Assembly: GCF_964213995.1 (NCBI RefSeq)
Contig: NW_027590136.1
Coordinates: forward strand, 1,116,001-1,180,000
Length of the DNA stretch: 64,000 nt
Direction of reading: 5' to 3'
Source of the DNA: Mustelus asterias
Taxonomy: Eukaryota
This document shows, one piece after another, positions 605 to 44,400 of the stretch (the stretch's first letter is position 1; each line of letters begins with the position of its first letter). The position numbers were made by a program, and so were the translations under genes. A model generated the notes under the pieces. It did no database searches and was not told the origin of the DNA. It worked only from the letters and a program-made list of their open reading frames with translations.

Positions 605-2438
605 GGCGAAGGATGGACAAGTCGCCAGGACCCAATGAACTGCACGCTCGGCTTTTAATGGAGGTTGCTGAAGAGATAGTGGACACTTTGGTTGTAATTT
701 TTCGTAGCTCGCTAAATTCTGGGAGGGTATTGAAGATTGGAAAACAGCCAATGTGACTACCTTGTTCAAAAAGGGAGAAAGGCAGAAGGCAGGGTTAATT
801 TAACCTTGTTAATTTAACATCTGTTGTTGGCAAGATACTGGAGTCAATAATGAAAGTGGAAAGAGCTAATCATTTCGGAAAGCTGAAACCTCGTCAAGAT
901 TCTTTTATGAAACATAAATCATGTTTGACAAATTCGCTTGAATTCTTTGAGAATGTAATAGGGGAGAGTAGATTGAGAGCAATCTGTAGATGTAGTGTAT
1001 TTAGATAGGGTGGCACAGTGTTTTTACCACTATTGCATCACAGCACCAGGGACCCGGATTCAATTGCGGCCTTGGGTGCGTCTGTGTGGAGTATGCACAT
1101 TCTCCCTGTGTCTGCGTGGGTTTCCTCCGAGTGCTCCAGGCTCTCCCCAATGATGTGTGGGTTAGGTTGAACGGCCATGCTAAATTGCCCCTTTGTGTCC
1201 CAATAGAAGTGGATTAGGGGGATTAGTGGGGTAAAAATGTGGGGTTATGGGGATAGGGCCTGGGAAAGATGTTCTGTCGGAGAGTCAGTGCAGACTCGAT
1301 GGGCCAAATGGTCTCCTTCTGCACTCTAGGGATTCCATGATTCGATGATTTCCAAAAGGCATTTGACAAGGCGCTGCATAAGAGACTGGCCTATAAAGTA
1401 AAGGTCCATGGAATTGGTGGAAGTGTATTAGATGGATTGAAAACTGGCCGTCACATAGAAAACAGAGAGTTGGAATAAATTAGTCATTTTCAGAGTGGAA
1501 AGATGTAACTAGTGGAGTACCACAGGGATCAGTTCTTGGCTCACAATTGTTCATTATTCAATTAATGACCTGGAGGAAGGAACAGAATGTAAGGTTTCCA
1601 ACTGATACGAAGATAGGCGGAAGGACATGTTGTGATGAGGATATTTTGATTCTGCAATGGGATATAGATAGATTGGGTGACAAAAACCTGGCAAATGGAG
1701 TTTAATGTGGAGAAGTGGGAGGTCATGTATTTCAGTAGGAGAAATCAAAAGGGAGATTATCTACATGGAGCGGCGCTGCAGGTGAGTGAAGTACAGAGGG
1801 ATCTAGATGTTCTTGCACATGAATCACAAAAAGCTAGCAGACAGGTCCCACAGTCGGTAAGAAGAAAAATGGAATTTTGACCTTTATTGCAAAGGGGTTG
1901 GAGTTTAAAAACATGGGGGGTTGTGTTGGTGAGGCCTCACCTGGAATACTGCGTAGTTTCGATCTTCTTACTTAAACAAGGATACAGTAACATTGGATGT
2001 AGTCCAAAGGAGATTCACCAGGCAAATTCCTGGGTGAGAGGGTTGTCCTATCAAGAGAGAATAAATTGTCTAGGTCTGTATTCCTTGAAGCTTTGAAGAC
2101 AAAGAGGTGACTTTATTGAAACATAAGATCCTGACGGGGCTTGACAGGATAGATGGTGAGGTATTTTTACAAGTGCAAAAGTCTCGAACAAGCTAAATGG
2201 TCGGTCATTTAAAACTGAGGTGCACAGAAATTTCTTCCCCCAGAGGGTGGTGAATGTCTGGAATTCTCTCCCCCACAGGTGGAGGCTGGATCACTATAAG
2301 TATTTAAAGTGGAGGTGGATAAATAGTTGATAGATCGAGGAATAGAGGGCTATGGGAAAAGGCTCACAACAGGAGTTGAAGCCGGCATAGATCAGCCATG
2401 AAGGGCCTGGTGGCCGCTCCTGCATCTATTTCTCGTGA
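605..2438 (+). mobile_element. Decayed CR1 LINE (RT region and 3' end) in the ZNF intron
   Basis: DKSPGP, VYLDFQKAFDK and VRPHLEYCV motifs with stops and frameshifts. TCAGT duplicated at 600-604 and 2439-2443. The paralog at ~12765-12785 shows the empty site. Confidence 0.9.
1008..1348 (+). mobile_element. HE1-like tRNA-derived SINE nested in the CR1
   Basis: GGTGGCACAGTG head, GTGTGGAGT.TGCACATTCTCCC core and CR1-like tail; splits the CR1 motif YLD|FQKAFD. Confidence 0.85.
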
Positions 2439-2518
2439 TCAGTTGCTGCAAGTCAACAGTTTCCCCCCAGAATGAAGAAAGAAATGGAAGGGGGGAGAAA
2501 AGAAAGAGTTTTACTCAC

Positions 2519-3061
2519 AGATGTTGGAGAGACAGGAGGAAGTTTGAGTCAATCTTCATTCAGAGAGGTAGCAGCAGCAGCTTCGCCGGGCAGGAATGAG
2601 GTCAACAAGCTCATTTTGCAACTTCCGCATTCAGACAATGGGGGTGCTCTGATTGGCTGGAGGAGCAGAGTGTTTCCGGTCCTCCAGAGTTCCCATTGGT
2701 CAATCCCCCGCAGACAGACAATGAGGGGCGGAGCCCCACGTGGGGGTGGGCGGGACTTTGCCCTCCAGCCGCGCTGAGCTGTTGTCCAATGGGAAAGGCT
2801 GGAAGACCCGGACAGACAATGGTCAGCGCGCCGGCTTTGTCCCGGGCCCCGCCCCACACCCGCACATGCGCATTCCCCCAAAACCCGCACAGGCGTACGT
2901 TTGATTCACCGCCCCTCACAGCTCTGGCCAATGAGAAGAATTGGAGGACCGGAAGGCCTCAGGTCTTCCAGCCAATGAGAGCGTGGGTTTTTGCGTGAAT
3001 GAAGATGGGGCATCAGACAGACTCAAACTTCCTCCTGACTGGGAGTTATCCGCGCCTTGCG
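2519..3061. promoter_or_regulatory. CpG-rich, probably bidirectional promoter with non-coding first exon(s)
   Basis: Several CCAAT boxes, GC boxes (GGGCGG), NRF1-like CGCACATGCGCA and ETS CCGGAAG. Minus-strand donor GTGAGT at ~2518; plus-strand donor GTGAGC at 3062. Confidence 0.7.
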
Positions 3062-3569
3062 GTGAGCTTTTGGAAATGTGGCCGCTGGGAGGAGCGCCTT
3101 GGTCGGCGTGAAGTTTCTGTTTCAAGTGCTTGGGTTTGTGACTTGTGTAAGAACTTTTTGTCTCGGCTGGGGCTTGTTGAATGCTGCTCTCGCTGGGATT
3201 CCTGTGCCTTGAAAGGCGTGGCCCAGGTAGATGCAATCTCGGAAGACCCAAGCCAGGGAGGAGCCATTTGGGAACTATGGTTTCGGAAGGTTCAGCCGCG
3301 GAAGGTGTGACCCCAGACGGTGCAGCCCCAGTGGGTGTGATTTTGGAAGTTCTGGCCCGGAGTGGTGGACTTTGGAGGACTGTAGTTGAGCGTTGTCGAC
3401 TTCGGACGGTGGAATGTTGATGGGCGAAGCTCTGGAAGGCGATGCCTCCGAAATGTTTCACAATTGTATGGTTGTGAATGGATTGTTTGTTATTGTAATA
3501 TGTGGTTTTCCTGTTATGATAGTTGGTGGTTTGTTCCGGCCCCCGTCTATTTTCTTGCGTTATTTGTGG

Positions 3570-6365
3570 CCTGGGGGGCATCCCCCCCTGGATAAAGTCA
3601 CCCCCGGGGGGTGTGACATCCACTTGGGGAAAGTTCTGGGTGGTGAAGCCCCGGATATAGTAACACCAGAGGGATTTTATTCTCCGGGAGAAAAATTGGG
3701 AAGGCAGGCCCGAACTGAGTACCCTGGAGAGACTCTCCCACCGCCCCGGCTGAAATTCCGGAAGGGATTCCGGATTGAGTAGGTTCGGGGTGGTTTCCCC
3801 ATTTCCCCCCTCCGGCTGAACATCCGTAAGGTGTAACCCCCGGATATGAGTACAAGAACAAAGAACAAAGAACAATACAGCACAGGAACAGGCCCTTCGG
3901 CCCTCCAAGCCCGCGCCGCTCCCCGGTCCAGGATTGAATCCTGAATCCAGGATCCCCGCCCAATTTTCCAGCCTATCTACATACCAATATCCTATCCACC
4001 GAGCTGTCCCTCACAGCTACGATGCTTTGTTCATTACAACCTATTAACTTACCCCCACCCCCCCATTCCAGACCATGTGATCTCCAGGGAGAGGCGAAAA
4101 CCCAGAGTGAAAAACCCCAGGGCCAATATGGGGAAAAAAAATCTGGGAAATTCCTCTCCGACCCCCTGAGGCGATCGAAACGAGTCCAGGAGATCACAAT
4201 GGCCCCGATCGGAAAATGCTTCCCAACCCTAGTCATTTCCACTTCCACGAACACCATATGAATTCCCTGCCCCCGAGACAGGTTCCCAACTATCCGCAGT
4301 CTCACTCTGTACTGGCACCAGCAAGATGATCGTAGAATGAAGCCTTGAAACGAGAAACCAGGAACAATTAGCCCGCGCCGCTCCCTGGTCCAAACTAGAC
4401 CACTCTTTTGTATCCCTCCATTCCCACTCCGTTCATATAGCTGTCTAGATAAGTCTTAAATGTTCCCAGTGTGTCCGCCTCCACCACCTTGCCCGGCAAC
4501 ACATTCCAGGCCCCCACGACCCTCTGTGTGAAATATGTCCTTCTGATATCTGTGTTAAACCTCCCCCCCTTCACCTTGAACCTATGACCCCTCGTGAACG
4601 TCACCACCGACCCGGGGAAAAGCTTCCCACCGTTCACCCTATCTATGCCTTTCATAATTTTATACACCTCTATTAAGTCTCCCCTCATCCTCCGTCTTTC
4701 CAAGGAGAACAACCCCAGTTTCCCCAATCTCTCCTCATAACCAAGCCCCTCCATACCAGGCAACATCCTGGTAAACCTCCTCTGTACTCTCTCCAAAGCC
4801 TCCACGTCCTTCTGGTAGTGTGGCGACCAGAACTGGACGCAGTATTCCAAATGCGGCCGAACCAACGTTCTATACATCTGCAACATCAGACCCCAACTTT
4901 TATACTCTATGCCCCGTCCTATAAAGGCAAGCATGCCATATGCCTTCTTCACCACCTTCTCCACCTGTGACGTCACCTTCAAAGATCTGTGGACTTGCAC
5001 ACCCAGGTCCCTCTGCGTCTCTACACCCTTTATGGTTCTTCCATTTATCGTGTAGCTCCTCCCTACATTATTCCCACCAAAATGCATCACTTCGCATTTA
5101 TCAGGATTGAACTCCATCTGCCATTTCCTTGCCCAAATTTCCAGCCTATCTATATCCTTCTGTAGCCTCTGACAATGTTCCTCACTATCTGCAAGTCCTG
5201 CCAGTTTTGTGTCGTCCGCAAACTTACTGATCACCCCAGTTACTCCTTCTTCCAGATCATTTATATAAATCACAAACAGCAGAGGTCCCAATACAGAGCC
5301 CTGCGGTACACCACTAGTCACAGGCCTCCAGCCGGAAAAAGACCCTTCCACTACCACCCTCTGTCTTCTATGACCAAGCCAGTTCTCCACCCATCTAGCC
5401 ACCTCCCCCTTTATCCCATGGGATCCAACCACTGGAGGGTTGCATCCCCCGGCAGGTGGACAAACCCAGGGGACGGTGCCCTTATGCTTCAGTGTTTATT
5501 TTTTGTTGTGTATAGTTGTAGTGTTGTGTTAATGTTTGTAGATTTGTAGATTATGATTTGTAAATGGAGGTGTATTTTGAGGGCAATGCCCTGGAAAATT
5601 GTAATTGATGATGAACCCTTCCGAAATGGAAGGTAGTAATTGATAAATGGATGGTGTTAGCCATCGGTAATGTATTTTTCAGATTTGTTCTTTGTTCATT
5701 TGTAATTGTTTTGTAATATCGTGTTTGTACTAACCAACGGAAAATCTTTGCATTGTTTGTGGCCTGGGGGGTATCCCCCCCCCCCCCCCCCCCCCCTGGA
5801 TAGAGTGACCCCGGGGGGTGTGACATCCAGTTGGGGAAAGTGTCCGGGGCACCCAGAGGGGTAACACCAGGGGGGTTTTGTTCTCCGGGAGAAAAATTGG
5901 GAAGGCAGGCCGAATTGAGTATCCCGGAGAGCTTTTCCCACCGCCCCAGCCGAAAATCCGGAAGGCAGTCCGGATTGAGTAGGTTCGGGGTGGTTTTCCT
6001 GTCCCCCCGCCTCCAGTCGAACATCCGTCAGGTGGAACCCCCGGACCTGAGTACCTCTGGAGGGTTGCATCCCCGGCAGGGGAAAAACCCGGGAGGCGGT
6101 GCCCTGGAGGGCGGCGGATATGCTGCAATGTTTATTCTTGTTGTGTTGTACTAATGTTTGTCACTTTGTAGATTATGATTTGTAATTGGAGGTGTATTGA
6201 GAGGGCAATGCCCTGGAAAACTATGACCGTTAGTGAACCCTTCCGAAATAGAAGATAGTAACTGATAAATGGATGGCGTTAGCCATTGGTAATGTATTTT
6301 TTTTTACATTTGTTCTTTGTGTATTTGTAATTGTTTTGTATTAACGTATTTGTAATAAACAAAAA
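3570..6365 (+). repeat. Unclassified ~620-bp tandem unit, two diverged copies, the first split by a CR1
   Basis: 3570-3852 plus 5429-5750 aligns by eye to 5750-6360; ends in AATAAA(CAAAAAG). Confidence 0.8.
3853..5428 (-). mobile_element. Young 5'-truncated CR1 LINE with long 3' UTR
   Basis: Open 345-aa RT C-terminus ([14 protein letters not shown]) at 4395-5432; (GTTCTTT)n tail at 3853-3875. Confidence 0.95.
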
Positions 6366-9820: not shown

Positions 9821-10579
9821 TCACTCGTGAACTTGTTGGTGTCTCAGCAGCTGGGATGAAAGACTGAATCTCTTCTCACACTGAGAGCAGGTGAACGGCT
9901 TCTCCCCAGTGTGAACTCGCTGGTGTCTCTGCAGGTGGGAGGACCGAGTGAATCCCTTCCCACATTGAGAGCAGGTGAATGGCCTCTCCCCAGTGTGAAC
10001 TCGCTGGTGTCTCCGCAGGGCGGATAAATCAATGAATCCCTTCTCACACTGAGAGCAGGTGAACGGCCTCTCCCCAGTATGGACTCGCTGGTGTGTCTGC
10101 AGGCTGGATAACCGAGTGAATCCCTTCCCACCCTGAGAGCAGGTGAATGGCCTCTCCCCAGTGTGAACTCGCTGGTGTGTCCGCAGGCTGGATGACCGAG
10201 TGAATCCCTCCCCACACTGAGAGCAGGTGAATGGTCTCTCCCCAGTGTGAACTCGCTGGTGTCTCTGCAGGCTGGATAACTGAGTGAATCCCTTCCCACA
10301 CTGAGAGCAGGTGAACGGCCTCTCCCCAGTGTGAACTTGCTGGTGTGTCTGCAGGCTGGATAACCGAGTGAATCCCGTCCCACACTGAGAGCAGGTGAAT
10401 GGTTACTCCCCAGTGTGAACTCGCTGGTGTGTCTGCAGGCTGGATAACTGAGTGAATCCCGCCCCACACTGAGAGCAGGTGAATGGTCTCTCCACCGTGT
10501 GGCTGCGCCGATGAGCTTCCAGTTCAGAGGGGTATTTGTATCTCTTCCCACAGTCTGCACATTTCCATGGTTTCTCCAT
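9821..10579 (-). pseudogene. C2H2 ZNF gene, 9 fingers, premature TAA after finger 2 (ZNF cassette 2)
   Basis: ATG at 10579 (MEKPWKC) to TGA at 9821 is one frame of 84-bp CxxC...[11 protein letters not shown] repeats; in-frame TAA at 10403-10405. Confidence 0.88.
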
Positions 10580-11569
10580 GGTGCAGGTGTTCTTGCCTCT
10601 CTTCAGTTGAAGACTCGTCCACACCCCTGCTGTGAATGGTGTGATATTTATTCAGGCTGTGTAACTGGTTCAAGCTCAGTGCACTGGAACACACTCACTC
10701 CAGTGTGGCAGTGTGTTGGAGCTTTTCCAGTCACACTAATATTTGAAATCTTTTCAAGTCATCAGGCCGGACAACCATTTCTCCTCGATTCAAAGGCCGA
10801 TGATATTCAGCTCCCAAGGAATATGACTCTGTCAGATCTAGATGTGACGTTTGAGATTTCGGCCTGTGATTCCTCTTTCAGTATCCTGTAAAACAAGTTT
10901 ACAGAGATCATCAGTGTCAGTGCAGGATGGAAATTCAGAACACACAATTCTAGTTTCTGTGGAACATTCTTTCCTCTCTCCAGACTCGAAACATTGGCTC
11001 TATTCTCTCTCTATCTGGGGGATAGCGTGGGAAATGATGCTGCGATAGATCAGCCAATTCTCAATGAATGGTTGAGGCAGTTCGATGGGCTGAATGGCCA
11101 ACTGCAGCTCCTGTTTCTTATGATTTGTGTGGTGGACAGGAAGCAGTGAGCATGGATCTGTCAATCAGCCTCAATCAGCACCTTCAGGAGAATTGGGAGG
11201 GTGAATATTAGATACAGCAGAGTGAGAATGGAGGGAGAGTGTGTGGGATGGAGATTCACAGCTTTTGGGGAACGAGAGAGGAACGAATGTTCTTTAGAAT
11301 CATAGAATTCTTACATCTTATCAACCGTCCCTGAGCCTTCACAATGAATCTCTCTTCTCAGGACATTCTTATCTCTGACTTGTCTGTGCTGCTCGCAGTC
11401 TCACAAAGCAGCTGCCTGTGTGCTGATATGAGGGGCCCTGCGAGGCAAGTTTAATGCTCCATGACTGTGTCTTTAATGACTGAATAACTGTAGGAATATG
11501 GTCAAGTCAGCTAAACCACATGATGCTTTATATTTCGGTTAGTAACTGTTGATTTTGTTAACGTAGCAC

Positions 11570-12242
11570 GTCAGAGGATGACCTGGGTCCCGCCCCCTCC
11601 TCCCACCCACTCCCCCCACTGATCAGAGGATGACCTGGGTCCCGCCCCATCCACCCACCCACTCCCCCCACTGATCAGAGGATGACCTGGGTCCCACCCC
11701 CTCCCCCCACCGATCAGAGGATGACCTGGGTCCCGCCCCCTCCTCCCACCAACCCCCCCCCCCGATCAGAGGATGACCTGGGTCCCGCCCCCTCCTCCCA
11801 CCCACTCCCCCCACTGATCAGAGGATGACCTGGGTCCCGCCCCCTCGTCCCACCCACTCCCCCCACTGATCAGAGGATGACCTGGGTCCCGCCCCCTCCA
11901 CCCACCCACTCCCCCCACTGATCAGAGGATGACCTGGGTCCCACCCCCTCCTCCCACCCACTCCCCCCACCGATCAGAGGATGACCTGGGTCCCACCCCC
12001 TCCTCCCACTCACTCCCCCCACCGATCAGAGGATGACCTGGGTCCCGCCCCCTCCTCCCACCCACTGATCAGAGGATGACCTGGGTCCCGCCCCCTCCTC
12101 CCACCCACTCCTCCCACCGATAAGAGGATCACCTGGGTCCCGCCCCCTCCTCCCACCACTCCCCCCCCCCCCCCATCAGAGGATGACCTGGGTCCCGCCC
12201 CCTCCTCCCACCAGCCCCCCTGATCACAGGATGACCTGGGTT
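11570..12242. repeat. 52-bp C-rich/G-rich minisatellite, ~14 units
   Basis: GATCAGAGGATGACCTGGGTCCCGCCCCCTCCTCCCACCCACTCCCCCCACT, with exact 52-bp period from 11764 to 12024 and shorter variant units. Confidence 0.95.
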
Positions 12243-12589: not shown

Positions 12590-13538
12590 GGAAGAGACTG
12601 ATTCCTATTGGCTGATTCAGGCAGGGCTCCATTGTGATGTCACAATGTGGAAGTTGTCCAATGAGCTTCAGAGTGAAACTCCCTCCTCTGGGCAACATCT
12701 GGGAGGAAATCAATGTTTCCCCCTTTCCATTTCTTTTCTCATTCTGGGGGAAATTGGGGACTTGCAGCAACTGAAGGGAAAGGGAGTGAATTTGGTCTGT
12801 ACATTCCACACATTTTTACTCCAGTAATGTAGACATTTATCTGTCTGGCAGCCTGCATGGAAATTTTCAGCTCTCTCTGTGCCCAGGACAGGAAGCAGCG
12901 AGCGTGGATCTGTCAATCAGCCTCAATCAGCACCTTCAGGAGAATTGGGAGGGTGAATATTAGATACAGCAGAGTGAGAATGGAGGGAGAGTGTGTGGGA
13001 TGGAGGTTCACAGCTTTTGGGGAATGAGAGAGGAAAGAATGTTCTATAGAAACTAGAATTGTCTGTTCTGAATTTCTATCCTGTACTGACACTGATGACT
13101 TTTGTAAATTCCTTTTGCAGGATATCAGAAGGTGAAGATTTAAAGACAATTATCAAACCAAACTTCACATCAAAATCTAACATAGTCACTCAGTTCATTG
13201 GGACCTGAATATCATCGACCTTTGAACCTAGAATGGAAATGTTTCTCTGCTCTGTCTGCTTCAGGAGATTTTAAACATCAGTGTGACTGGAAAAGCACCG
13301 AGACACACACACACTGAAACATGAACACACCGGAGTGACTGTGGAAAGAACTTTAACCAGTTAAACAGCCTGAAAATACATTGCAGCAGAGAGACTGCAC
13401 CCATGTTATGTTGTAATTGAACTGATTGTCAAGCCTGGAGAGTCACAAGGACACCCGCACCATGGAGAAATTGTGTAAATGTGGGGACTGTGGGAAAGGA
13501 TTCAGGTTCCCATCTGCACTGGAAACTCATCAGCGCAG
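12590..13538 (+). pseudogene. ZNF cassette 3, truncated in finger 1 by the ERV LTR
   Basis: CCAAT and palindromic CATTGTGATGTCACAATG promoter; exon-1 donor mutated (GGGAGG vs GTGAGT in the paralog); acceptor TTTTGCAG at 13120; MEKLCKCGDCGKGFRFPSALETHQR from 13462, ending at the LTR. Confidence 0.85.
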
Positions 13539-14116
13539 TGTTTTGCCGGACCGGTAACAGGTTCGTGGAGGTGGTCTGAGAGAAAGAATTCACACTACAC
13601 CAGTATTGCTAGAATAAAATGTGTCTCTTTATTCCCCACAATACATGGACAAGTTCTACAAGTATCATTCAATGGGCTAAGCCTTATATAGTTTAACTAC
13701 CCTGACACGTGGACTGGAGAGCCGTCAGTCCAGGTAGAGTGGCTTACCTCCCGCCGGGCGTCCGTACGTAACCCACGGCAGACTCTGCTGTAGTAGGGAC
13801 TTTCCCGCATATTTATAGAGAAAAGCCTCTCTTTGTTCTGGACATCTGAATATGAGTCACTCTTGGTATCCGGCCAAGTACGTGATGTTTAGAGCAGTCT
13901 CGTGCAATACAAGTTCTATTGTTCGCAGCTCAAGAAAACAAGTTTAATGGTTAATCATTCACGCTATGTCTTGGGCACGGATCTAATTTAATTATGTTTT
14001 GACATGTTTATCCTTTCATGTGGACAGGCTGTCTCCATTGTCCGTAGCAGTTGTCAGCATACGAGATTTTGCTGACAGGGTTGAAATCGGGACATTAACT
14101 CTTTATTCTCCTAACA
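13539..14116 (-). repeat. 3' LTR
   Basis: Direct repeat of 17508-18085; one mismatch found by eye (13905 C vs 17874 T). TATAAA ~13812-13817 and AATAAA 13628-13633 on the minus strand. Confidence 0.97.
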
Positions 14117-14147
14117 TTCCACCTGTTGGACCGATTTCAATCACCAT

Positions 14148-15992
14148 TTACCTCAACGCAGTGTGATACAGGGTACTTTCCAAACCCTGTTTCACACGCC
14201 TGACATATACACAGGTAAGTACATTACAACAAGTTAAAACAGCAACAATCACAAATATCAATATCAGAGGAGGCAAAACATATCGCCGGGCCGTTTGTGA
14301 TATCCCGGTTAGCAAGTCCCACCAATGATGGGCTGATTCATTCTCTATCATTCGCGCAGCATGTACTACCTGTTCTCCGGCTATAAAGGTAGAGACCATG
14401 ACACGGGACACGTTAGACTTATGAGAGTCAATTATATGTTTTAGCTCCGTCGACTGATTCAATGCGCATTTGAACCTGTCGAGAGAGACTCGCCATGGCA
14501 TATGGAGAACTTTCCACTGAGCCGTACTCAAGCGAGATTCAGTGCTATAATTAGTCAATTTGTAAGTCTTGTTCGCCCAATGCCAAATGTACACCCCCTT
14601 CAAACACCCAGAGAACGGTATCTGCGGCAATAATGGTTGGCGGTGTATGGTGGCCACACATACAGCGTGGGGCCCAATCTGCCACAAGATATCTCGTGGT
14701 TTCTCTACTCGCCACTCACATAATGCCGTGTCATCAGTTAAACATGGATCGCGATATCTTGTCATAGTTAAACATGCCAATCCTCTGTCAGTGTCTTCAC
14801 ATGTTGACAAATCATAAGTCCAATTGTTTTTAGGACTAAACCAGTTACCATTAGTTCTCAGAAAGTAAAACCCATGCAGGGTAATTACAGGCAGTACATG
14901 GTATTTACATACAGATATTACATCTGCCACATTCATCAAGGTGTAATGTCCAGTACATGCTGTTTTGTTACAAACAGTTTTATCTGAGCGGGCTTGCACC
15001 CACAAAGTGTCCGATATGTTCCAGAGTTCTCGCAGTTCATGAGAGTTACCCGTAGTAACTATTCGGATAAACCTCTCTTGTTGCACTCGCATGTGCACTC
15101 CTTGGATGTTGCAGATAGTCATATTAAGTGCCGCCGTGATGTTATGCATAAGTTCCTGTGTCGCATTCCACATTCGCTTCTCCCAGTCCAGAGTTCGTAG
15201 CAGAATCCGTGCTGTTTCCACTTGCGTTTTCACAACCGTGGGCATCCATATTCCGACAGTATGGAGCCCGTGTGATGTCGAATATCCAGTGTCCGATAAC
15301 ATAGTTCTGGTAACTTCATTGTCAGCCGCATTAGAGATACCTAGTACTGTACCAGTCCCACCCAACAGCGTATCATACCATGCTCGCCACCTGCGGGCGC
15401 CAGAACAGGTAGGTAGCGAGGGCAGAATGACAGTCCAGTGTACCTCAGTGTGCGTGAGCTGATTCGCCATCTTTCGACAAGTATGTAGGACTGGGGCGAA
15501 TTGTGTTTGTTCTATTATAGGCTTGTTTGGTAGGAACATTATTGCATATAGGAATGTATTGCGGCCTTTTATTTCTGTACTGTTCTGGAACCATACCAAT
15601 CGAGGCCTCTCACCTGTCACAGTAATATTCCAGGTGGTGCCATTTTCCTTACTGGACATACAGGTTCTATTCCTTCTTGTTTGTATCTGGCAAAGTGGAG
15701 CTCCTGCCGTTATGGTAACCGTACAATTCATAGCAGTTGTGGGGAGAGCTTTGTTGTTGTCCAAGCATTTTTCACAACGATATAGCTTACACACACTCGT
15801 TATATTCGTGATTCCGCACATTCGATTCGCGCCACAAGTGAACTCCCCTTGAGTTCTATTATGGGTGGAGTTCTTCCATGCGAGGCGAAAACCGCCAAGC
15901 TTTTCGGTCAATTGATGACCAGGGGTCCCCTCAACCCATATCCACGAGATCAAGAGTATTCCTGCTATCAGTATCAACGTCAATCGTTCCAT
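14148..15992 (-). CDS. env: Intact retroviral envelope glycoprotein, 614 aa
   Basis: Signal peptide, Cys- and N-glycan-rich SU, RRWR cleavage site, fusion peptide AWYDTLLGGTGTVLG, Trp-rich MPER, TM helix, short tail. Splice acceptor TCTTTTACAG 12 nt upstream of the ATG. Confidence 0.92.
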   Translation of the reverse strand: MERLTLILIAGILLISWIWVEGTPGHQLTEKLGGFRLAWKNSTHNRTQGEFTCGANRMCGITNITSVCKLYRCEKCLDNNKALPTTAMNCTVTITAGAPLCQIQTRRNRTCMSSKENGTTWNITVTGERPRLVWFQNSTEIKGRNTFLYAIMFLPNKPIIEQTQFAPVLHTCRKMANQLTHTEVHWTVILPSLPTCSGARRWRAWYDTLLGGTGTVLGISNAADNEVTRTMLSDTGYSTSHGLHTVGIWMPTVVKTQVETARILLRTLDWEKRMWNATQELMHNITAALNMTICNIQGVHMRVQQERFIRIVTTGNSHELRELWNISDTLWVQARSDKTVCNKTACTGHYTLMNVADVISVCKYHVLPVITLHGFYFLRTNGNWFSPKNNWTYDLSTCEDTDRGLACLTMTRYRDPCLTDDTALCEWRVEKPRDILWQIGPHAVCVATIHRQPLLPQIPFSGCLKGVYIWHWANKTYKLTNYSTESRLSTAQWKVLHMPWRVSLDRFKCALNQSTELKHIIDSHKSNVSRVMVSTFIAGEQVVHAARMIENESAHHWWDLLTGISQTARRYVLPPLILIFVIVAVLTCCNVLTCVYVRRVKQGLESTLYHTALR

Positions 15993-16034
15993 GCTGTTTT
16001 ATTCCTGTAAAAGAGATCAATCTTCAAGACATAG

Positions 16035-17243
16035 TTAATCTTCTCGTAGATAACATTTCTTAGCAGGGACATTAACCCATTTGGGCTCACCAGGGTACAT
16101 TACCGTTACGGTTCCATCACTGCCTTGAGCAATGATTTCAGCAGCTCTGGGTGGGCCAGTTTCCTGTTTCACCCAGACTTTAGCTCCAGGTTTATCTGTT
16201 GAGCCAAAACCACCAGTTCCTCTTTCAGTCACCACCTGTGGGATACCAACTTCAACGGCCGGTGCCATCTCACAGGGTTTAATCACCAGTTGGGCGATTT
16301 TATTATTTGCAGTCACAGTATAGGGATCAGGTTTAATATTACACAGAACCACCCCAATTTCTCCTTGATAATCTGAATCAATGACTCCTGCCATAACAGT
16401 TATCCCCTTCAGGGACAATCCAGAACGGGGAAGGATGTGCCCATAAGTTCCCTTAGGGCACTGCAATCCCAATCCGGTTTTAATAACAGTAGGTGTATCT
16501 TGTGGCAGGGTCACTGTTTCTAAGGTTCTTAGATCTAAACCGGCCGAGCCAGGCGTGGCTCGCCGCGGTAATTCTGCTTTATCATCCAATTTCCACATTT
16601 TGATTGATTCTCCTTGTGGGGTTTCACATACATGGACCATTCGGTTCAAAGGCGTGACTCCCCCACCTAGCGGTCGATTATTAATTTGCTTCAATACTTG
16701 ATTTAATTTCACCTTCCAATTAGACAAATCATCAGAAGTACTAGCCTTTCGCAATGAGGTTTTCAGTATTCCATTCATTCTTTCAATTAATCCTGCTGCT
16801 TGGGGATAGTACGGAATATGGTATATCCACTCCACATGATTGTCAGTGGCCCATTGTCGGACCAGGTTTCCCGTAAAGTGGGAACCATTGTCACTATCAC
16901 TCCAAATGTTTCCATCCCACGTATCGGGATTCCAGCCGCTCCCGTCCCCCAATCTAGCTACAAATGCTTTAATTTTCACCATTTCCAATTCTCTAGGTTT
17001 TTTACGCTTCTTCCTCCGATTTATTCTGGATACATAACCCACTGCCTGGCCAGCCAGGGTTTTAAGGGCTTCTAATTCTGTTTCTAACTTTATTATTTTT
17101 TGCTTTAACAACGAATTATTACATTCCTGTTCTCCCAATTGCTGTTTCAGTTTAAGAGCATTCTGCTCGGCTTCCTGTCGTTGTTTAAACTGATTCTTCC
17201 ACGCTGTTGCACATACCCACAGTCTCCGCTGAATTCCCTCCAC
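16035..17243 (-). CDS. Gag N-terminal / integrase C-half / dUTPase fusion ORF (deletion product)
   Basis: Coiled coil and ERV-L-type gag motif [11 protein letters not shown] joined to SDNGSHF...IERMNG (D-35-E). Five dUTPase motifs ([30 protein letters not shown]) then a KVWV...AEIIA IN C-terminal domain. Confidence 0.88.
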
Positions 17244-17251
17244 GGGGGTCT

Positions 17252-17449
17252 TCAGAGGGACGGTATTTTTAACAGAGTAGATAATACTTCTCCGGGAGAT
17301 CCATCTCGGGTCTCCTCTCCCCAGTTTTCAGCGCGACCCCCTCCGTCTCGGAGGCACGCTGCAACCGGTCTCCACGATCCTTCCCATCCCGGAATGATCG
17401 CTTCCTCTCCCTTTTCCTCCTCCTGTAACTTCTTAGTTTTGCGAAACAT
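17252..17449 (-). CDS. gag: Gag extreme N-terminus (MFRKTKK...), out of frame with the downstream ORF by 1 nt
   Basis: First ATG after the PBS; overlaps the open frame of the fusion ORF over 17254-17327. Confidence 0.65.
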
Positions 17450-17486
17450 CTTTCTCCAAGAACCCCCCACCGCCAATTATCACCGT

Positions 17487-17504
17487 ATCCTGCTGACTAC
17501 GCCA
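17487..17504 (-). promoter_or_regulatory. Primer-binding site, tRNA-Ser
   Basis: TGGCGTAGTCAGCAGGAT, 3 nt from the 5' LTR; complementary to the tRNA-Ser 3' end ...ATCCTGC(C/T)GACTACGCCA. Confidence 0.9.
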
Positions 17505-17507
17505 AAA

Positions 17508-18085
17508 TGTTTTGCCGGACCGGTAACAGGTTCGTGGAGGTGGTCTGAGAGAAAGAATTCACACTACACCAGTATTGCTAGAATAAAATGTGTCTCTTTA
17601 TTCCCCACAATACATGGACAAGTTCTACAAGTATCATTCAATGGGCTAAGCCTTATATAGTTTAACTACCCTGACACGTGGACTGGAGAGCCGTCAGTCC
17701 AGGTAGAGTGGCTTACCTCCCGCCGGGCGTCCGTACGTAACCCACGGCAGACTCTGCTGTAGTAGGGACTTTCCCGCATATTTATAGAGAAAAGCCTCTC
17801 TTTGTTCTGGACATCTGAATATGAGTCACTCTTGGTATCCGGCCAAGTACGTGATGTTTAGAGCAGTCTCGTGTAATACAAGTTCTATTGTTCGCAGCTC
17901 AAGAAAACAAGTTTAATGGTTAATCATTCACGCTATGTCTTGGGCACGGATCTAATTTAATTATGTTTTGACATGTTTATCCTTTCATGTGGACAGGCTG
18001 TCTCCATTGTCCGTAGCAGTTGTCAGCATACGAGATTTTGCTGACAGGGTTGAAATCGGGACATTAACTCTTTATTCTCCTAACA
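17508..18085 (-). repeat. 5' LTR
   Basis: 578-bp direct repeat of 13539-14116, adjacent to the PBS. Confidence 0.97.
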
Positions 18086-19740
18086 CCACCTCATCCACTA
18101 CTCCACCAATCTTGGCGTCATCAGCAAATTTACTGATCCACCCTTCAGCCCCCTCCTCTAGTCATTAATAAAAATCACAAAGAGCAGAGGACCAAGCACT
18201 GATCCCTGTGGCACTCCGCTAGCAACCTGCCTCCAATCCGAAAATGTTCCATCCACCACCACCCTCTGTCTTCGATCAGATAGCCATTTACCTATCCAAT
18301 CGGCCAAATTTCCCTCTATCCCACACCTCCTTACTTTCATCATAAGCCGACTATGGGGGACCTTATCAAACGCCTTACTAAAATCCATGTATATGACATC
18401 AACTGCCCTACCTTCATCAACACACTTAGTTACCTCCTCAAAAAATTCTATCAAATTTGTGAGGCATGACATGCCTTTCACGAATCCGTGCTGACTATCC
18501 CAGATTAATCCGCATCTTTCTAAATGGTCGTAAATCCCATCCCTAAGGACCTTTTCCATCAACTTACCAACCACCGAAGTAAGACTAACCGGCCTATAAT
18601 TACCAGGGTCATTTCTATTCCCTTTCTTAAACAAAGGAACAACACCCGCCACTCTCCAGTCCTCTGGCACCATCCCCGTGGACAGTGAGGACCCAAAGAT
18701 CAAAGCCAAAGGCTCTGCAATCTCATCCCTTGCCTCCCAAAGAATCCTAGGATATATTTCATCAGGCCCAGGGGACTTATCGACCTTCAGTTTATTCAAA
18801 ACTGCTAGTACATCCTCCCTCCGAACATCTACTTCCTCCAGCCGATTAGCCTGTAACACCTTCTCTTCCTCAAAAACATGGCCCCTCTCCTTGTTGAACA
18901 CTGAAGAAAAGTATTCATTCATCACCTCTCCTATCTCTACTGACTCCATACACAAGTTCCCATTACTGTCCTTGACCGGCCCTAACCTCACCCTGGTCAT
19001 TCTTTTATTCCTTACATAAGAGTAAAAAGCCTTGGGGTTTTCCTTGATCCGACCCGCCAAGGACTTCTCATGTCCCCTCTAGCTCTCCTAAGCCCCTTTT
19101 TCAGCTCATTCCTTGCTAACTTGTCACCCTCAATCGAGTCATCTGAACCTCGTTTCCTCATCCCTACATAAGCTTCCCTCTTCCTTTTTGCAAGACATTC
19201 CACCTCTTTTGTGAACCATGGTTCCCTCACTCGGCCATTTCCTCCCTGCCTGACAGGGACATACCTATCAAGGACATGCAGTATTTGTTCCTTGAACAAG
19301 CTCCATTTTTCATTTGTGCCTTTCCCTGACAATTTCTGTTCCCAACTTATACCCCCTAATTCTTGCCTAATCGCATCATAATTACCTCTCCCCCAATTAT
19401 AAACCTTGCCCTGCCATACGGCCCTATCCCTCTCCATTGCAATAACAAAAGACACCGAATTGTGGTCACTATCTCCAAAGTGCTCTCCCGCAACCAAATC
19501 TAACACTTGGCCCGGTTCATTTCCCAGTACCAAATCCAATGTGGCCTCACCTCTTGTCGGCCTATCCACATATTGTGTCAGGAAACCCTCCTGCACACAC
19601 TGCACAAAAGCTGCCCCATCCGAACTATTCAACGTACAAAGGTACCAATCAATATTTGGAAAGTGAAAGTCCCCCATCACAACTACCCTGTGACCCCCGC
19701 ACCTATCCATAATCTGCTTAGCAATTTCTTCGTCCACCTG
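18086..19740 (-). mobile_element. CR1 LINE ORF2 (endonuclease end and RT), cut by the ERV LTR
   Basis: [35 protein letters not shown] and FADD.KIGG motifs, then an abrupt LTR junction. Confidence 0.93.
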
Positions 19741-19812
19741 GTTTCAGCAGCAGATGATCTGAGGCCAGGACAAAGTGGGGCGATGTCACTGAGGTGGAAA
19801 TAGGTAGTGTAG

Positions 19813-20615
19813 GTGGTGATGTGGCAAATCGAGTTAAATACAGATCAGTGTGAGGTGTTGCATCATGGAAAGTCAAACCAAGGTAGAACTTTCACGGTGA
19901 ATGGGAGGACCTCAGGGAGTATCGTGGAACAGAGGGACCTTGGAGTTCAGGTGCACGGTTCTCTTAAGGTGGAGTCACGTGTAGATAGGGCAGTGAAGAA
20001 GGCTTTTGGCATGCTGGCCTTTATCAGTCAGGGCATTGAGTATAGAAGTTGGGAAGTTATGTTGCAGTTGGACAGGACTTTGGTGAGGCTGCACCTGGAA
20101 TATTGTGTTCAGTTTTGGTCACCTTGATTTGGAAAGATGTTATTAAACTGGAGAGAGTGCAGAAGAGATTTACAAGGATGTTGCCAGTACTCAAGTTATA
20201 GGGAGAGATTGGACAGGCAAGGACTTTTTTCTTTGGAGCGTAGGAGACTGAGGGGTGATCTTATAGAGATGTATAAGCTCATCAGAGGCATGGATAGGTT
20301 GAATGCACTCAGTCTTTTTCCCAGGGTTGGGGAATTAAGAATTAGAGGGCATAAGTTTAAGTTAAGAGGGGAAAGAATTAATGGGAACCTGAGGAGCAGC
20401 CTTTTTACACAGAGGATGGTACATGTGTGGAATGAGCTGCTGGAGGGAGTGGTTGAGGCAGGGACATTGTCAACATTTAAAAGGCATTTGGACAGATACA
20501 TGGATAGGAAAGGTTTAGAGGGATATGGGCCAAATGGAGTTTGCTTACATGGGCATTTCTGGTGGGCATGGACCAGTTTGGGCCGAAGGGCCTGTCTCCG
20601 TGCTGTAGATTCTAT
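19813..20615 (+). mobile_element. CR1 3' fragment
   Basis: RDLGVQVH, HLEYCVQFWSP and [12 protein letters not shown] peptides. Confidence 0.9.
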
Positions 20616-21322
20616 GAGGATATGTTTGGAAGCTCAGTTTGAAGTGAAACATGTCACTGAGGTTGTGAATACTCCGGTTCAGCCTCAGACAGTCGCAATG
20701 GGGACAGATGGAGTCAGTGGTTAGGAAGTGGAATTTGTTGCAGGGCTGAAGATGATAGCCTTCATCTTCCAATATTTAACAAAGGCAATTACTGCTCATC
20801 CAGTCCTGGATGTCAGACAAGGGAGGATGGTGTGTAAAGTTGGAGAAGAACGTGAAGATGATGGTGTTCACAGACACCTCTTACCCTGATCCTTCTCGGT
20901 GGGCAGGTTAACGGTTTTAAGGTTCAAACCACTGGTTGAGTTGTAGATACATAAAGTCCCTCCTTTGCCCCCACCTCTCTCTCCATCCATAGAGGCCAGA
21001 GCCTTGTGGAGTCCCAGACTGGATGGCAGATTCCCTTCCCTGGCAGACATTAGTGAACCAGTTGAGGTTTTATGACAATCCGGCAGTTTCCATGGTAACT
21101 TTTTCCCAGTGCCGTCCCCACAAATGACCAGATTCATTCAGCTCAATTTCACAACCTGCCTTTGTGTTTTTGTGGGATCTCTCTCACTCCCTTTTCACTG
21201 TTTTAAATCAATTTCACAGAGATTTGGAAGGGGAGGATTTGCAGTCAGGAAACTCAAACCAAACATCACATCAGGATCTGACTGAGTCGCCCAATTTATT
21301 GTAACCTGAATACCACTGAACC

Positions 21323-22523
21323 TTGAGCATGGAAGGAAAAAGCACCGTTCACAGTGGGGTGAAACTGTACACGTGTCCTGTGTGTGGACAAGGATTCAGA
21401 CAATCATCTGCTCTGTCAAGACACAAGTGCAGTCACACTGAGGAGAAACCGTGGAAATGTGGGGAAGGATTCAGAGACCTGCCTGAACTGGAAATTCACC
21501 AATACAGTAACACTGGGGAGAGGCTGTTCACCTGCTCTGAGTGTGGGAGAGGATTCACTCAGTCATCCACCCTGCTGACACACCAGCGAGTTCACACTGG
21601 AGAGAGGCCATTTATCTGCTCCGAGTGTGGAAAGGGATTCACTCAATCATCTAACCTGCTGACACACCAGCGCACTCACACTGGGGAGAAGCCATTCACC
21701 TGCTCTGAATGTGGGATGCAATTCACGCAGTCATTCAACCTGCTGAGACACCAGCGGGTTCACACTGGAGAGAGGCCATTCACCTGCTCCGAGTGTGGGA
21801 AGGGATTCACTCAGTCATCTACACTGCAGACACACCAGCGAGTTCACACAGAGGAAAGACCATTTAAATGTCCAGAATGTGACAAGTGCGATAAAAGTTT
21901 AAAGGAAGTGATGTTCCATCAACGTGTTCACACTGAGGAGACCATTTAAATGCCCAGACTGCGAGAAGTGCTGTAGAGGTTCCAGAGAACTAATGTTCCA
22001 TCAACGTGTTCACACTGATGAGAGACCGTTCAGGTGCTCTCACTGCGGGACTGGGTTCAAGTGGTCATCTCAACTCACTGAACACCAGCGAATTCACACT
22101 GGGGAGCGGCCGTTCACCTGTACGGACTGTGGGAAGGGATTCACTCGGACATCACACCTCATGGCACATCAGCAAGTTCACACCGATGAGAGACCGTTCA
22201 AATGTCCAGATTGCGGGAAGTGTTGTAAAAGTTCCAGCAATCTAGTGTCCCATCAACGTGTTCACAGTGAGGAGACACCTTTTAAACGTCCAGACTGCGG
22301 GAAATGCAATAAAAGCTGCAGCGATCTGATGTCTCATCAACGTGGTCACACTGATGAGAGACCGTTCAAGTGCATTCACTGCGGGACTGGGTTCAGGCGA
22401 CCATCCCAACTCACTGTCCACCAGCGAATTCACACTGGGGAGAGGCCGTTCACCTGCTCCAAATGTGGAAAGGGATTCACTCAGAAATACAACCTGTTGA
22501 GCCATCAGCGAGTTGACAAGTGA
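21323..22523 (+). pseudogene. C2H2 ZNF gene of ~14 fingers with a frameshift near 21940 (ZNF cassette 4, different subfamily)
   Basis: ORFs 21323-21949 and 21924-22523 both encode tandem fingers; the linker CACTGAGGAGACCATTT lacks 2 nt. Several fingers have lost Cys/His. Acceptor at 21219; AATAAA at ~22614. Confidence 0.85.
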
Positions 22524-23671
22524 CTGCTGGAGTTTGATTCTGCTGTTTATCACAAATCACAAACATGTTGATTGTGGTCATTCGCCTCTGATGTAAATAA
22601 ATTTGAGCCCACAAATAAATACTAATGTCCTGGATGAAAGTCAAATCAATCTGCTTTTATGTTAAACAAACAATTTGTTGAAACTTTTTATTATCTCTGA
22701 CTCAAGTCCATTCCTTTCAAATAGTTCTCCCTCTCCCCTGTCTCCTCCATCCTGACCCCAACAAAAAGTGTGATGAACTCATGGAGCTTCTTTGTTACTA
22801 GGATTGAGCCAACCCAATCAGCTGCCCCTGCTGCTTCCCTCTCTTCCACCCTCCCACTGAGCCAAACTAATGTGTCTGAAGCCTCTCCCTGTCTGAGCCT
22901 TGAACCTGCATCTTTCAACAGTTTCTTTCCTGTCTTGGCCCTGACTCTATTTTCATTAAATTACTGACCATCCAACTTCCCCATATTGGCTGATATTGTT
23001 AATGATTCTCTCCCTCTCTTCTGGTTTTGTTCCTCTCACTTTTAACTACACAAACATCACCCTTTCTGAAAAAAAACCCTTTGATCCCACTTTGCTTGCA
23101 AATTATGGCCCCATCTCCAGCCTCCCTTTCCTCTCCAAAGTCTTTGAACTTGGTGTCTCCCAAGGATATATACTTTTGGTCTCCTATTTGGGCAGCAAGG
23201 TGGCATGGTGGTTCACACTGCTGCTTCACAGATCCAGACACCTGAGTACAATTTCAACCTGTGTGGAGTTTGCACATTCTTTCTGTGTCTGTGTGGATTT
23301 CCTCCGTGTGCTCCGGTTTCTTCCACACTCCAAAGATGTGCAGGCTAGCTGGAATGGCCATGGTAAAATGTATGGGATTACGGGTATAGGGTGGGGAGAG
23401 GGACAGCAGATTTCCTTACCCAGAGGATGTTAGTGAGCAATCAGCAATGGTTTCATAGTCAGAGCATTGCCCTGGGTCTCTGGGTTACTGCTCCAGTGAC
23501 AATATCACTATGCCACTGCCTCTTCAATGTACACACAATGAAAAGGCCATTCACCTGCTCCATGTGGGAAAGAATTTGTGCATCCAATTTGAAGGGCTGT
23601 GATCACGATAATTATGAAAATTCAGGATATGAATGCCTTTTCTTTGTAATTCCAACATTCATCTACTCTTA

Positions 23672-29458: not shown

Positions 29459-29944
29459 AATGGGGAGAGAGTGTGTGGGATGGAGATTTACAGCTTTTGG
29501 GGAATGAGAGAGGAATGAATGTTCCGTAGAAATTGTCTGTTCTGAATTTCTATCCTGTACTGACACTGATGACATTTGGAAACTCATTTTACAGGATATT
29601 GAAAGAGGAATCACAGGCCGAAATCTCAAACTTCACGTCTCGATCTGACAGAGTCTTATTCCTTGGGACCTCAATATCATCGGACTTTGAATCCAGAAGG
29701 AGAAATGATTGTCCAGTCTGTCGATTTGAAAAGATTTGAAATGTCAGTGTGAGTGAAAAAGCATCAACACACTGCCACACTCGAGTGAGAGTGTTCCAAT
29801 GCACTGACTAAAGAGCTTTAACCAGTTACACAGTCTGAATAAATATCACACCATTCACAGCGGGTAGAGACTGTAATCTTGTTCTGCATGTGGACGAAAT
29901 TCAACTAATTGTCCACCCAAGAGAGAGGTAAGGACACCTGCATC

Positions 29945-30871
29945 ATGGAGAAACCATGGAAATGTGTGGACTGTGGGAAGGGATACAGAACCCCATCAGA
30001 GCTGGAAGCTCATCGGCGCAGTCACACTGGGGAGAGGCCGTTCATCTGCTCTCAGTGTGAGAAGGGATTCATTCAGTTCTCCAGCTTACAGATACACCAG
30101 CGAGTTCACACTGGGGAAAGGCCATTCACCTGCTCTCAGTGTGGGAAGGGATTCACTTGTTCATCCAACCTGCGGACACACGAACGGGTTCACACAGGGG
30201 AGAGGCCGTTCACATGCTCTCAATGTGGGAAGGGATTCACTCGATTATCCGACCTGCAGATACACCAGCGAGTTCACACTGGGGAGAAACCATTCACCTG
30301 CTCTCAATGTGGGAAGGGATTCATTCAGTTATCAGACTTGCAGAGACACCAGCGAGTTCACACTGGAGAGAGGCCGTTCACCTGTTCTCAGTGTACCAAG
30401 GGATTCGCTCGATTATCCGAACTGCGGACACACCAGCGAGTTCACACTGGGGAGAAACCATTCACCTGCTCTCAGTGTGGGAAGGGATTCACTGTGTCAT
30501 CCAACCTGCAGACACACCAGCGAGTTCACACTGGGGAGAAACCATTCACCTGCTCTCAGTGTGGGAAGGGATTCAGTCGGTCAACCCACCTGCGGACACA
30601 CCAGCGAGTTCACACAGGGGAGAGGCCATTCACCTGCTCTCAGTGTGGGAAGGGTTTCAGCGTTTCATCCCAGCTGCTGAGACACCAGCGAGCTCACACT
30701 GGGGAGAAACCATTCATCTGCTCTCAGTGTGGAAAGGGATTCACTCAGTTATCCAACCTGCGGACACACCAGAGAGTTCACACTGGGGAGAGGCCGTTCA
30801 CCTGCTCTCAGTGTGGGAAGGGATTCACTCGGTTAACCCACCTGCGGATACACCAGCAAGTTCACGAGTGA
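29945..30871 (+). CDS. Intact C2H2 zinc-finger protein, 11 fingers, 308 aa, no effector domain visible (ZNF cassette 5)
   Basis: MEKPWKC start, 11 CxxC-x12-HxxxH units with TGE(R/K)PF linkers; acceptor TTTTACAG at 29594. Confidence 0.92.
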
Positions 30872-42109: not shown

Positions 42110-44400
42110 CGGATTGAACCAGTCTCTTTATAATTAATCCTGTGTCAGTTTCTGTTATATAAGGCCATGTTTCTGTTTATGTGGCATTAGACCCTATCTC
42201 TACGCATATTAAACTAGATCCTTTCTCTGATTATACCAAATTAGACGCCATCTCTATTTATATGATAGGTCACATGTTTCTGTTTATATCAAACTAGACG
42301 CTGTCTCTGTTTATATTAATTTAGACCTGTCTCTGTTTGTACTAAACGAGTTAGAACATAGAACAGCACAGAACAGGCCCTTCGGCCCACGATGTTGTGC
42401 CGAGCTTTATCTGAAACCAACATCAAGCTATCCCACTCCCTATTATCCTGGTGTGCTCCATGTGCCTATCCAATAACCGCTTAAATGTTCCTAAAGTGTC
42501 TGACTCCACTATCACTGCAGGCAGTCCATTCCACACCCCAACCACTCTCTGCGTAAAGAACCTACCTCTGATATCCTTCCTGTATCTCCCACCACGAACC
42601 CTATAGTTATGCCCCCTCGTAATAGCTCCATCCACCCGAGGAAATAGTCTTTGAACGTTCACTCTATCTATTCCCTTCATCATTTTATAAACCTCTATTA
42701 AGTCTCTCCTCAGCCTCCTCCGCTCCAGAGAGAACAGCCCTAGCTCCCTCAACCTTTCCTCATAAGACCTACCCTCCAAACCAGGCAGCATCCTGGTAAA
42801 TCTCCTCTGCACTCTTTCCAGCGCTTCCACATCCTTCTTATAGCGAGGTGACCAGAACTGCACACAATATTCCAAATGTGGTCTCACCAAGGTCCTGTAC
42901 AATTGCAGCATAACCCCACGGCTCTTAAACTCCAGCCCCCTGTTAATAAAAGCAGTCTTATTTCTGCACTTGACCCTGTCCACGTTTATATTGCATTGGA
43001 CATGGTGTCAGTTTTTATTGCACTGGTCAATGCCACAAATTAGGAAAGTGTTTGGGAGAAAATAGTTTTCTTTCTGCATCCTTCTAAACATGTAAATTCT
43101 ATGAAGTCTTGGGCAGCGGAAAATAAGAAGCGTTATCTGAAATCTACTTCTGCTGACTGCATTGAAAATGGATACCAAGCCCTATGTTGCATGCACTGTC
43201 AACAAAGAACAAAGAACAAGAAAATTACAGCCCAGGAACAGGTCCTTCGACCCTCCAAGCCTGCACCAACCAAACACTGTCGATTCAATACTGCCCGTTT
43301 CAGGATCCTGTCAGATAGCAATGTCTTTCCACGAACACATTGTCACTTCTTCTTGCAGAACCGTGGAGTCATACAGACATAATTCAAGCAGAGGTATAGT
43401 TCAGTGCAGGAAAAACACTGACCCAGTCTAGTGAAACGTGTACAGGATCACGATCAAATATCATATAACCAGAGAGTATATCTAATGCTATATAAACTGA
43501 GTTCTGGTCCAGCAGACTGTTAACAGAGACAGACTGTATGTAAATATAAACAGGAGCCTGATCCAACAAAATAGAAATGAGTTAGTGCCGAGTGCCATGT
43601 GGGGATGGTCGAAGGTCAAATGCTGGTCTTTCCAGTGACACACACATCCCTTGAAAGAACCATTTAAAATAATGTCGATGACATTGTCTAGGAAAATAAA
43701 ACTGAGATAATGTCTAGTGCAGTTTTTCTGGATACAGAAGCTTGTCCGATATTAACTGAGGCAGAGCCTCGTACATTATTAGTAATTAATGATAGGGGAC
43801 CTAGACTGATATAAGCTGAGACGTAGCCAAGTGTATTAGTAATAATTGCTGACACAGGACCGAGACAGATATAAACTGAGACAGAGTCCAGTGTATTAGT
43901 AATAATTACTGATACAGGACCCAGACTGGTACACACTGAGATTTAGACAATGCAGCAATTAGGACATATTGCAAAATGCAATAATAACAGAGACGTGACA
44001 TAGTCTTAAATGAACAAATACATGGACTGATGCAGCATTAACGTAAACAGGATTTAGTTTATTAAAATCTAATGAACTATTACATAATAACTGTGACAGA
44101 ACCATGTGTTATGCATGAAGGCAGTTCTTCCAGTTTAGTATACAGTGGTAAATGTTCTGAGGCAGTAAAAATTGAGACACGGCCTCTTTTCAGATTAGCA
44201 GAGACATGGCTCAGTGCAGCCAAAACTTAGAAATTATAATATAAATAGGGTCTAAGTCTCGTATATGAGCGCCCGATATTGCGCCGGGTGCAGGGAAAAA
44301 CTTACATAGGAACTCCTGGAATGTGACCCAGTCACAGATTAGTGTAACACAGATCGTGACAGAGGCCAGTTGAATATAGGCAGAGATATGGCCTGTTTAA
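42110..44400. repeat. Degenerate ~30-bp satellite (AGACCCTGTCTCTGTTTATATT...), in opposite orientations either side of ~43.1 kb
   Basis: Units on + at 42110-42350 and 42955-43030; reverse-complement units at 43400-44400. Confidence 0.6.
42352..42955 (-). mobile_element. CR1 3' fragment (same subfamily as 55835-56318)
   Basis: 186-aa ORF2 C-terminus; (GTTCTAT) tail. Confidence 0.93.

Follow-up and report, generated by a model that had tools for sequence, protein, structure and literature searches.

A probable ERV-L-lineage provirus of the shark Mustelus asterias with an intact env predicted to be of the paramyxovirus F/foamy virus type

The window analysed here is a 64,000-nucleotide stretch of the genome of the shark Mustelus asterias (contig NW_027590136.1, positions 1,116,001 to 1,180,000). 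On its minus strand lies an endogenous retrovirus of 4,547 base pairs (bp; window positions 13539-18085), bounded by two 578-bp long terminal repeats (LTRs). The env open reading frame (ORF), read on the minus strand from 15992 to 14148, encodes 614 amino acids (aa) and a stop codon with no internal stop, and the plus strand has many stops. We consider it probable, with good confidence, that the provirus is young, has undergone internal deletion with its env left intact and belongs to the ERV-L lineage (class III), and that the Env, a predicted class I fusogen of the paramyxovirus F/foamy virus type, was the likely entry protein of the parent virus.

A first-pass annotation of the sequence had described a short surface subunit (SU), a cleavage site and fusion peptide near residue 200, and a Cys-rich ectodomain of about 370 aa leading to HHWWDLL and a transmembrane (TM) helix. 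This layout was recovered. The N-terminus is hydrophobic (residues 1-19), the cleavage motif R-R-W-R occupies residues 200-203, and a Gly-rich hydrophobic stretch (204 to about 225) follows directly. HHWWDLL lies at residues 555-561, the strongest hydrophobic segment begins at about 571, and the TM helix is placed from about 572, some 368 aa after the cleavage site. The SU has about 180 aa past the signal peptide and can be refined into an N-terminal beta-domain (25-157) and a piece resembling the F2 subunit of paramyxovirus F (161-203). The protein has 24 Cys, 11 of them in the TM ectodomain, and 19 N-glycosylation sequons.

Conservation was assessed in an alignment (A3) of 66 rows, composed of the window Env, 13 related proteins and 52 of 74 new representatives, short or weak ones being dropped. 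Ten of the 11 TM-ectodomain Cys are kept in 44-48 of the 45-49 rows covering each column, and C172 and C196 of the SU are almost invariant. CXXC in the SU is a mark of gamma-type Envs; the one CXXC here (residues 73-76) falls in columns covered by 12-14 rows, with C76 kept in 8 of 14. The cleavage site reads [RK]-x-[RK]-R in 34 of the 43 rows covering it, and the fusion peptide shows the family's highest conservation (median identity 68%, versus 25-38% elsewhere). As the first-pass annotation had stated, the layout is unlike that of gamma- and beta-type Envs. Beta-type and lentiviral Envs have a short TM ectodomain with heptad repeats HR1 and HR2 and one small Cys loop, in contrast to the long ectodomain, ten conserved Cys, beta core and lack of any Pfam match found here. 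Gamma-type Envs carry an immunosuppressive domain (ISD) followed by CX6CC in the TM subunit (PMC9967133). Neither CX6CC nor the looser C-x5-7-CC occurs in the window Env, no ISD-like motif occurs in the 66 rows, and CX6CC appears in only two of them, both times inside hydrophobic helices outside the ectodomain.

Structure and language-model searches point to paramyxovirus F and foamy virus Env, as the first reading had proposed. The predicted protein consists of an F-like core (161-549) with an extra N-terminal beta-sandwich (25-157). In its model, domains I, II and III are nested and the F2 strand threads through the core, and the basic cleavage site stands immediately before the hydrophobic fusion peptide, as in F-type proteins; model confidence (the predicted local distance difference test score, pLDDT) is low at residues 220-253. 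Alignments with F cover the beta domains over residues 161-549, beyond the helices alone, and the F2-like segment aligns with the F2 start of respiratory syncytial virus (RSV), human metapneumovirus (hMPV), Newcastle disease virus (NDV) and human parainfluenza virus 3 (hPIV3) F, and with residue 139 of foamy Env. The Pfam search of Env gave no match, including to PF00523 (Fusion_gly) at gathering score, and neither PF00523 nor the foamy Env family is among the 25 of 41 families listed for the 66 rows.

With paramyxovirus and pneumovirus F (PF00523; RSV, hMPV, hPIV3, NDV and Nipah virus F) the shark Env would share the nested F2/F1 core, a cleavage site before an N-terminal fusion peptide, a long heptad repeat A (HRA), a Cys-rich beta core, a heptad repeat B (HRB) and a single TM helix. 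However, identity is 6-13% with no hidden Markov model (HMM) match, the 130-aa beta-sandwich is additional, the F2-like part has no predicted heptad repeat C (HRC) helix, and the gene sits on an LTR retrovirus without a separate attachment gene. A structure search of BFVD also returned baculovirus F (E about 1e-5) and, as a further match to the F-like model, a fish filovirus (Wenling thamnaconus) glycoprotein. Errantivirus Env, of the baculovirus F type (PF12259), is likewise an F-type Env on an LTR element, although of Ty3/gypsy type and in invertebrates; that source reports no homologous vertebrate endogenous retroviruses (ERVs) and leaves vertebrate ERVs to later work (PMC13524379). Predicted Env models of the walleye epsilonretroviruses WEHV1 (walleye epidermal hyperplasia virus 1) and WDSV (walleye dermal sarcoma virus) gave Foldseek matches to the shark model (E 3e-4 and 8e-4), although these Envs are about twice as long and accompany a class I Pol. 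The model matches hint that the F-like core may be used more widely among fish viruses, including other fish retroviral Envs.

By analogy with F and foamy Env (PMC11468914), the shark Env would be translated from a spliced mRNA, directed into the endoplasmic reticulum by its signal peptide, glycosylated, assembled into trimers and cleaved by a furin-type protease after R203. The SU would be kept on the TM subunit by the F2-like strand and conserved Cys, with disulfide pairing as in F and foamy Env. Once the N-terminal domain had bound its receptor, HRA would extend, the fusion peptide would insert and HRB would zip up to form a six-helix bundle. The window copy cannot replicate on its own, and a longer relative would have copied it in trans.

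The carrier of this env had escaped the first-pass annotation, which missed both the internally deleted ERV-L provirus and the mammalian relatives described below. The element lacks protease, reverse transcriptase (RT), RNase H and the greater part of gag, and the window copy is therefore non-autonomous. The gag remnant has a frameshift near 17261, an indel relative to all four sequencing runs, and the primer-binding site (PBS) is one that we take to be tRNA-Ser-like. The dUTPase gave a strong Pfam match (E 7e-34), and the integrase (rve) pieces score under the cut-off. Longer forms of the element exist, since at the gag/integrase junction contigs of run X1 continue into other sequence on both sides (10 bp overlap) and a contig of run X4 has about 660 additional bases.

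At 40-64% identity, the integrase-dUTPase piece matches full-length, ERV-L-like Pol proteins from Logan contigs, Nothobranchius, Dendrobates, Mantella, Geotrypetes, Lissotriton, Bombina and a titi monkey; the titi monkey protein (P0151) has matching gag, integrase and dUTPase pieces. Among nine of these full relatives that were examined, all have YIDD, eight a dUTPase motif and five DTG. YIDD and a dUTPase after the integrase are marks of class III/ERV-L (PMC8278194), and the second is present in the window element. In a comparison by eye with rows of the PMC7947760 supplement, the RT of two relatives (P0143 and P0145) is close to HERV-L and MuERV-L and far less so to foamy virus and snakehead retrovirus (SnRV). 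The RT being deleted in the window copy, its assignment to the ERV-L lineage is predicted from motifs and the RT likeness of relatives. Mammalian ERV-L members are described as lacking env (bioRxiv 2024.07.05.601823), whereas env adjoins ERV-L-like gag-pol both here and in a koala-type contig (L001), and the carrier is therefore ERV-L-like, not ERV-L proper. XtERV-S and AnERV6/8 have similar ERV-L-like gag-pol, YIDD and dUTPase after the integrase, and XtERV-S (class III) is also primed from a Ser PBS and occurs in many copies with internal deletions, but their Envs are gamma- or alpha-type (with ISD and CX6CC in XtERV-S), unlike the shark Env (PMC8278194; bioRxiv 2024.07.05.601823).

Regarding age, the two LTRs differ at one of 578 positions, and the observed/expected CpG ratio of the element (0.73-0.78 over 13539-18085, versus 0.48 in flanking DNA) is consistent with recent insertion. 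No target-site duplication is found: positions 13534-13538 and 18086-18090 differ, although ERV-L would be expected to leave 5 bp. Coding sequence of C2H2 zinc-finger-like type lies on the left, and a CR1-type RT of a long interspersed nuclear element (LINE) on the right. These flanks suggest that two insertions have recombined at the locus, or that the assembly was joined there; LTR identity would therefore date the family and not the window insertion. The missing duplication points to a locus rearrangement and is not an argument against the ERV-L lineage.

The closest database protein to the window Env is from Mustelus asterias itself (99% identity). Its cluster has eight members, seven RefSeq loci on five scaffolds and one Logan protein, all 98-99% identical. 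The window copy alone carries its residues at 62, 202 and 452. At 202 it has Trp (codon 15389-15387) where all eight other members have Arg, and at position 15389 each of the four sequencing runs shows a CpG transition relative to the window. The copies thus fit the initial proposal that RRWR arose from RRRR by CpG decay; judged from these sequences, Trp202 is a private CpG-type change. It may lower cleavage efficiency, with the motif still R-X-X-R. The env frame remains open because the copy is young. Some gene models join env to other sequence, namely P0018 of Mustelus (811 aa, with a non-viral C-terminal extension), P0172 of a pipefish (named 'protein quaking-A') and P0006 of the basking shark (a gag-env fusion); these are probably annotation artefacts or deleted proviruses.

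An exhaustive search with Env returned 77 representatives at E<=0.001 (48 at 1e-10), two being bacterial false positives. Looking up 20 of these gave 18 clusters with names, whose hosts include pipefish, horn shark, bichir, lungfish, nine frogs or toads, two caecilians, echidna, koala, bilby and marmoset. The initial protein search contributed another three sharks and seven teleost species. A quick tree of 31 rows, left unrooted, nests four shark Envs (support 96) in a teleost group (99, 95), puts the horn shark protein far outside and groups marmoset, koala and echidna together (support 99), a pattern that hints at host switching. The mammalian ORFs, from marmoset (P0067, a single ORF of 601 aa), echidna (P0071), bilby (P0087) and koala (P0060), are unannotated. 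Contig L001 (positions 1000-5140) carries an env 99% identical to the koala protein together with fragments of ERV-L-like gag and pol, which match the Pol relatives of the shark element at 44-58% identity; it too is internally deleted with env retained. L001 is filed in a Bacteroidales metagenome-assembled genome and is probably host contamination, because it carries this koala-type element.

Some alternatives have to be weighed. The intact env within an otherwise defective provirus, and the retention of env with pol deleted in L001, could indicate a co-opted host fusion gene of the syncytin type, as the first-pass annotation suggested. That suggestion is not supported. Besides the window copy there are at least seven annotated loci, 98-99% identical, on five scaffolds; the LTRs are near-identical, the three private changes include the cleavage site, and run X1 contigs of a related organism have indels in env. 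A syncytin-like gene is a single conserved orthologous locus, whereas this env is multi-copy and young. Because of these many near-identical young copies, co-option of the window locus is disfavoured and appears quite unlikely. Tissue-specific expression would be another mark of a syncytin-like gene, and the sequencing runs that contain the element include none on record as RNA. A highly diverged gamma- or beta-type Env with decayed motifs, matching F by its long helices, is about equally improbable, considering the missing ISD and ectodomain CX6CC, the 165-aa beta core within the long ectodomain, and alignments with F that extend over the beta domains.

Two further readings concern known retroviral groups with F-related Envs. 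Lokiretrovirus Envs, from endogenous elements of fish and amphibians, have a signal peptide, RXKR, fusion peptide, coiled coil, TM helix and similarity to PF00523 (PMC7947760). However, in four of 23 listed Loki Envs compared by eye, cleavage falls at about residue 115-125, F2 is short with no N-terminal beta-domain, and the fusion peptide differs. Short motifs of the shark Env family had no match among Loki sequences in the part of the supplement searched. The Loki Pol is another lineage, with an RT sister to all retroviruses, a CGIN1-like integrase and no dUTPase mentioned in the available text and supplement, in contrast to the ERV-L-like Pol, by motif and by eye, of the shark element's relatives. 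We regard a lokiretrovirus origin as very unlikely. Least likely of all is the Env of a fish endogenous foamy virus, even though foamy Env structures (8rm0, 8rm1, 8ozh) stand near the top of the structure-search ranking, both retroviral Envs would be built on an F core, and the carriers share class III affinity. Foamy Env has about 980 aa, a long leader with its own TM helix, two furin sites and, between HRC and the cleavage site, a receptor-binding domain (RBD) that interrupts domain III (PMC11468914). The shark Env has 614 aa, a single predicted hydrophobic signal peptide of ordinary kind, one conserved cleavage site and a candidate RBD N-terminal to the F core. The foamy Pfam family is not among the 25 of 41 families listed, and a dUTPase after the integrase is an ERV-L mark. 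The F/foamy-type Env of an ERV-L-lineage provirus remains the preferred reading, and its features are collected in Table 1.

Table 1. Features of the provirus and of its Env, in window coordinates
Feature	Position	Strand	Basis or remarks
5' LTR	17508..18085	-	578 bp, TG...CA ends; 1 mismatch vs 3' LTR
Primer-binding site	17487..17504	-	starts 3 nt past 5' LTR; from sequence
gag 5' remnant	16896..17449	-	coiled coil, W-x-P-D-T-W motif; tblastn of P0006, two frames
Internal deletion junction	16886..16895		gag joined to mid-integrase; Pol relatives align only from 16895
Integrase C-terminal half, dUTPase (about 16197-16580), C-terminal tail	16038..16895	-	Pfam; Pol relatives
Candidate env splice acceptor	16005..16018	-	pyrimidine tract + AG, 12 nt upstream of ATG; sequence only
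env ORF	14148..15992	-	614 aa, intact
Predicted signal peptide	15927..15992	-	aa 1-~22; hydropathy, model helix 2-18
N-terminal beta-sandwich domain (predicted)	15522..15920	-	aa 25-157, 8 sequons; candidate receptor-binding domain
F2-like strand segment (predicted)	15384..15512	-	aa 161-203, ends in R200-R203; conserved C172, C196
Predicted fusion peptide	15318..15383	-	aa 204-225; conservation
Long HRA-like helix (predicted)	15051..15317	-	aa 226-314; structure model, heptad check
Cys-rich beta core (predicted)	14553..15050	-	aa 315-480; counterpart of F domains I/II; structure model
HRB-like and membrane-proximal region (predicted)	14280..14552	-	aa 481-571, holds HHWWDLL
TM helix and short tail (predicted)	14151..14279	-	helix aa ~572-596, tail to 614; hydropathy, model
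Candidate polypurine tract	14117..14127	-	short purine-rich tract adjoining 3' LTR; from sequence
3' LTR	13539..14116	-	578 bp

The window as a whole is a zinc-finger gene cluster, with C2H2 arrays of 84-bp repeats at 10000-10585, 21320-23570 and 29909-30871. CR1-type LINE pieces lie in opposing orientations at 18086-20700 (RT/endonuclease on the minus strand at 18158-19743, a 3' part on the plus strand from about 19800). More LINE fragments occur at 4395-5495, 42423-43007 and 46578-48206, and a 52-bp tandem array at 11498-12241.

Retroviral Env surveys have worked with gamma and beta classes, taking foamy viruses and lokiretroviruses as F-like exceptions and ERV-L as env-less or a borrower of gamma Env. 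F-like Envs are known from foamy viruses (PMC11468914), lokiretroviruses (PMC7947760) and invertebrate errantiviruses (PMC13524379), and ERV-L-like elements with env reported so far have gamma- or alpha-type Env (PMC8278194; bioRxiv 2024.07.05.601823). Surveys of anamniotes and monotremes started from Env types already known, the monotreme screen using GyDB Env HMMs and reporting gamma and beta types. Our search of the open literature turned up no account of ERV-L-like pol accompanied by an F-type Env, and earlier annotation, for instance in Repbase or Dfam, is possible; a Nothobranchius family protein is already named 'Envelope glycoprotein' in UniRef. Tentatively, and at somewhat less than even chances, we propose that the ERV-L lineage had this F-type Env as its native, ancestral envelope and that it shares its origin with foamy Env. 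Class III retroviruses would then have started out with an F-type fusogen, which ERV-L lost and XtERV-S-like elements exchanged for gamma Env, and an overlooked third vertebrate Env type would have circulated in hosts as distant as sharks, monotremes, marsupials and New World monkeys. If so, surveys seeded with known Env profiles would have missed it.

By itself the locus in the window is a young and defective copy of an ordinary kind, and the interest lies in its family. A family of F-type Envs linked to ERV-L-like pol, whose ORFs are long or intact in sharks, fish, amphibians and mammals, would be a missing Env class, one whose unannotated mammalian members HMM-based env screens would overlook, and the origin of retroviral Env would become testable by structure-guided phylogeny.
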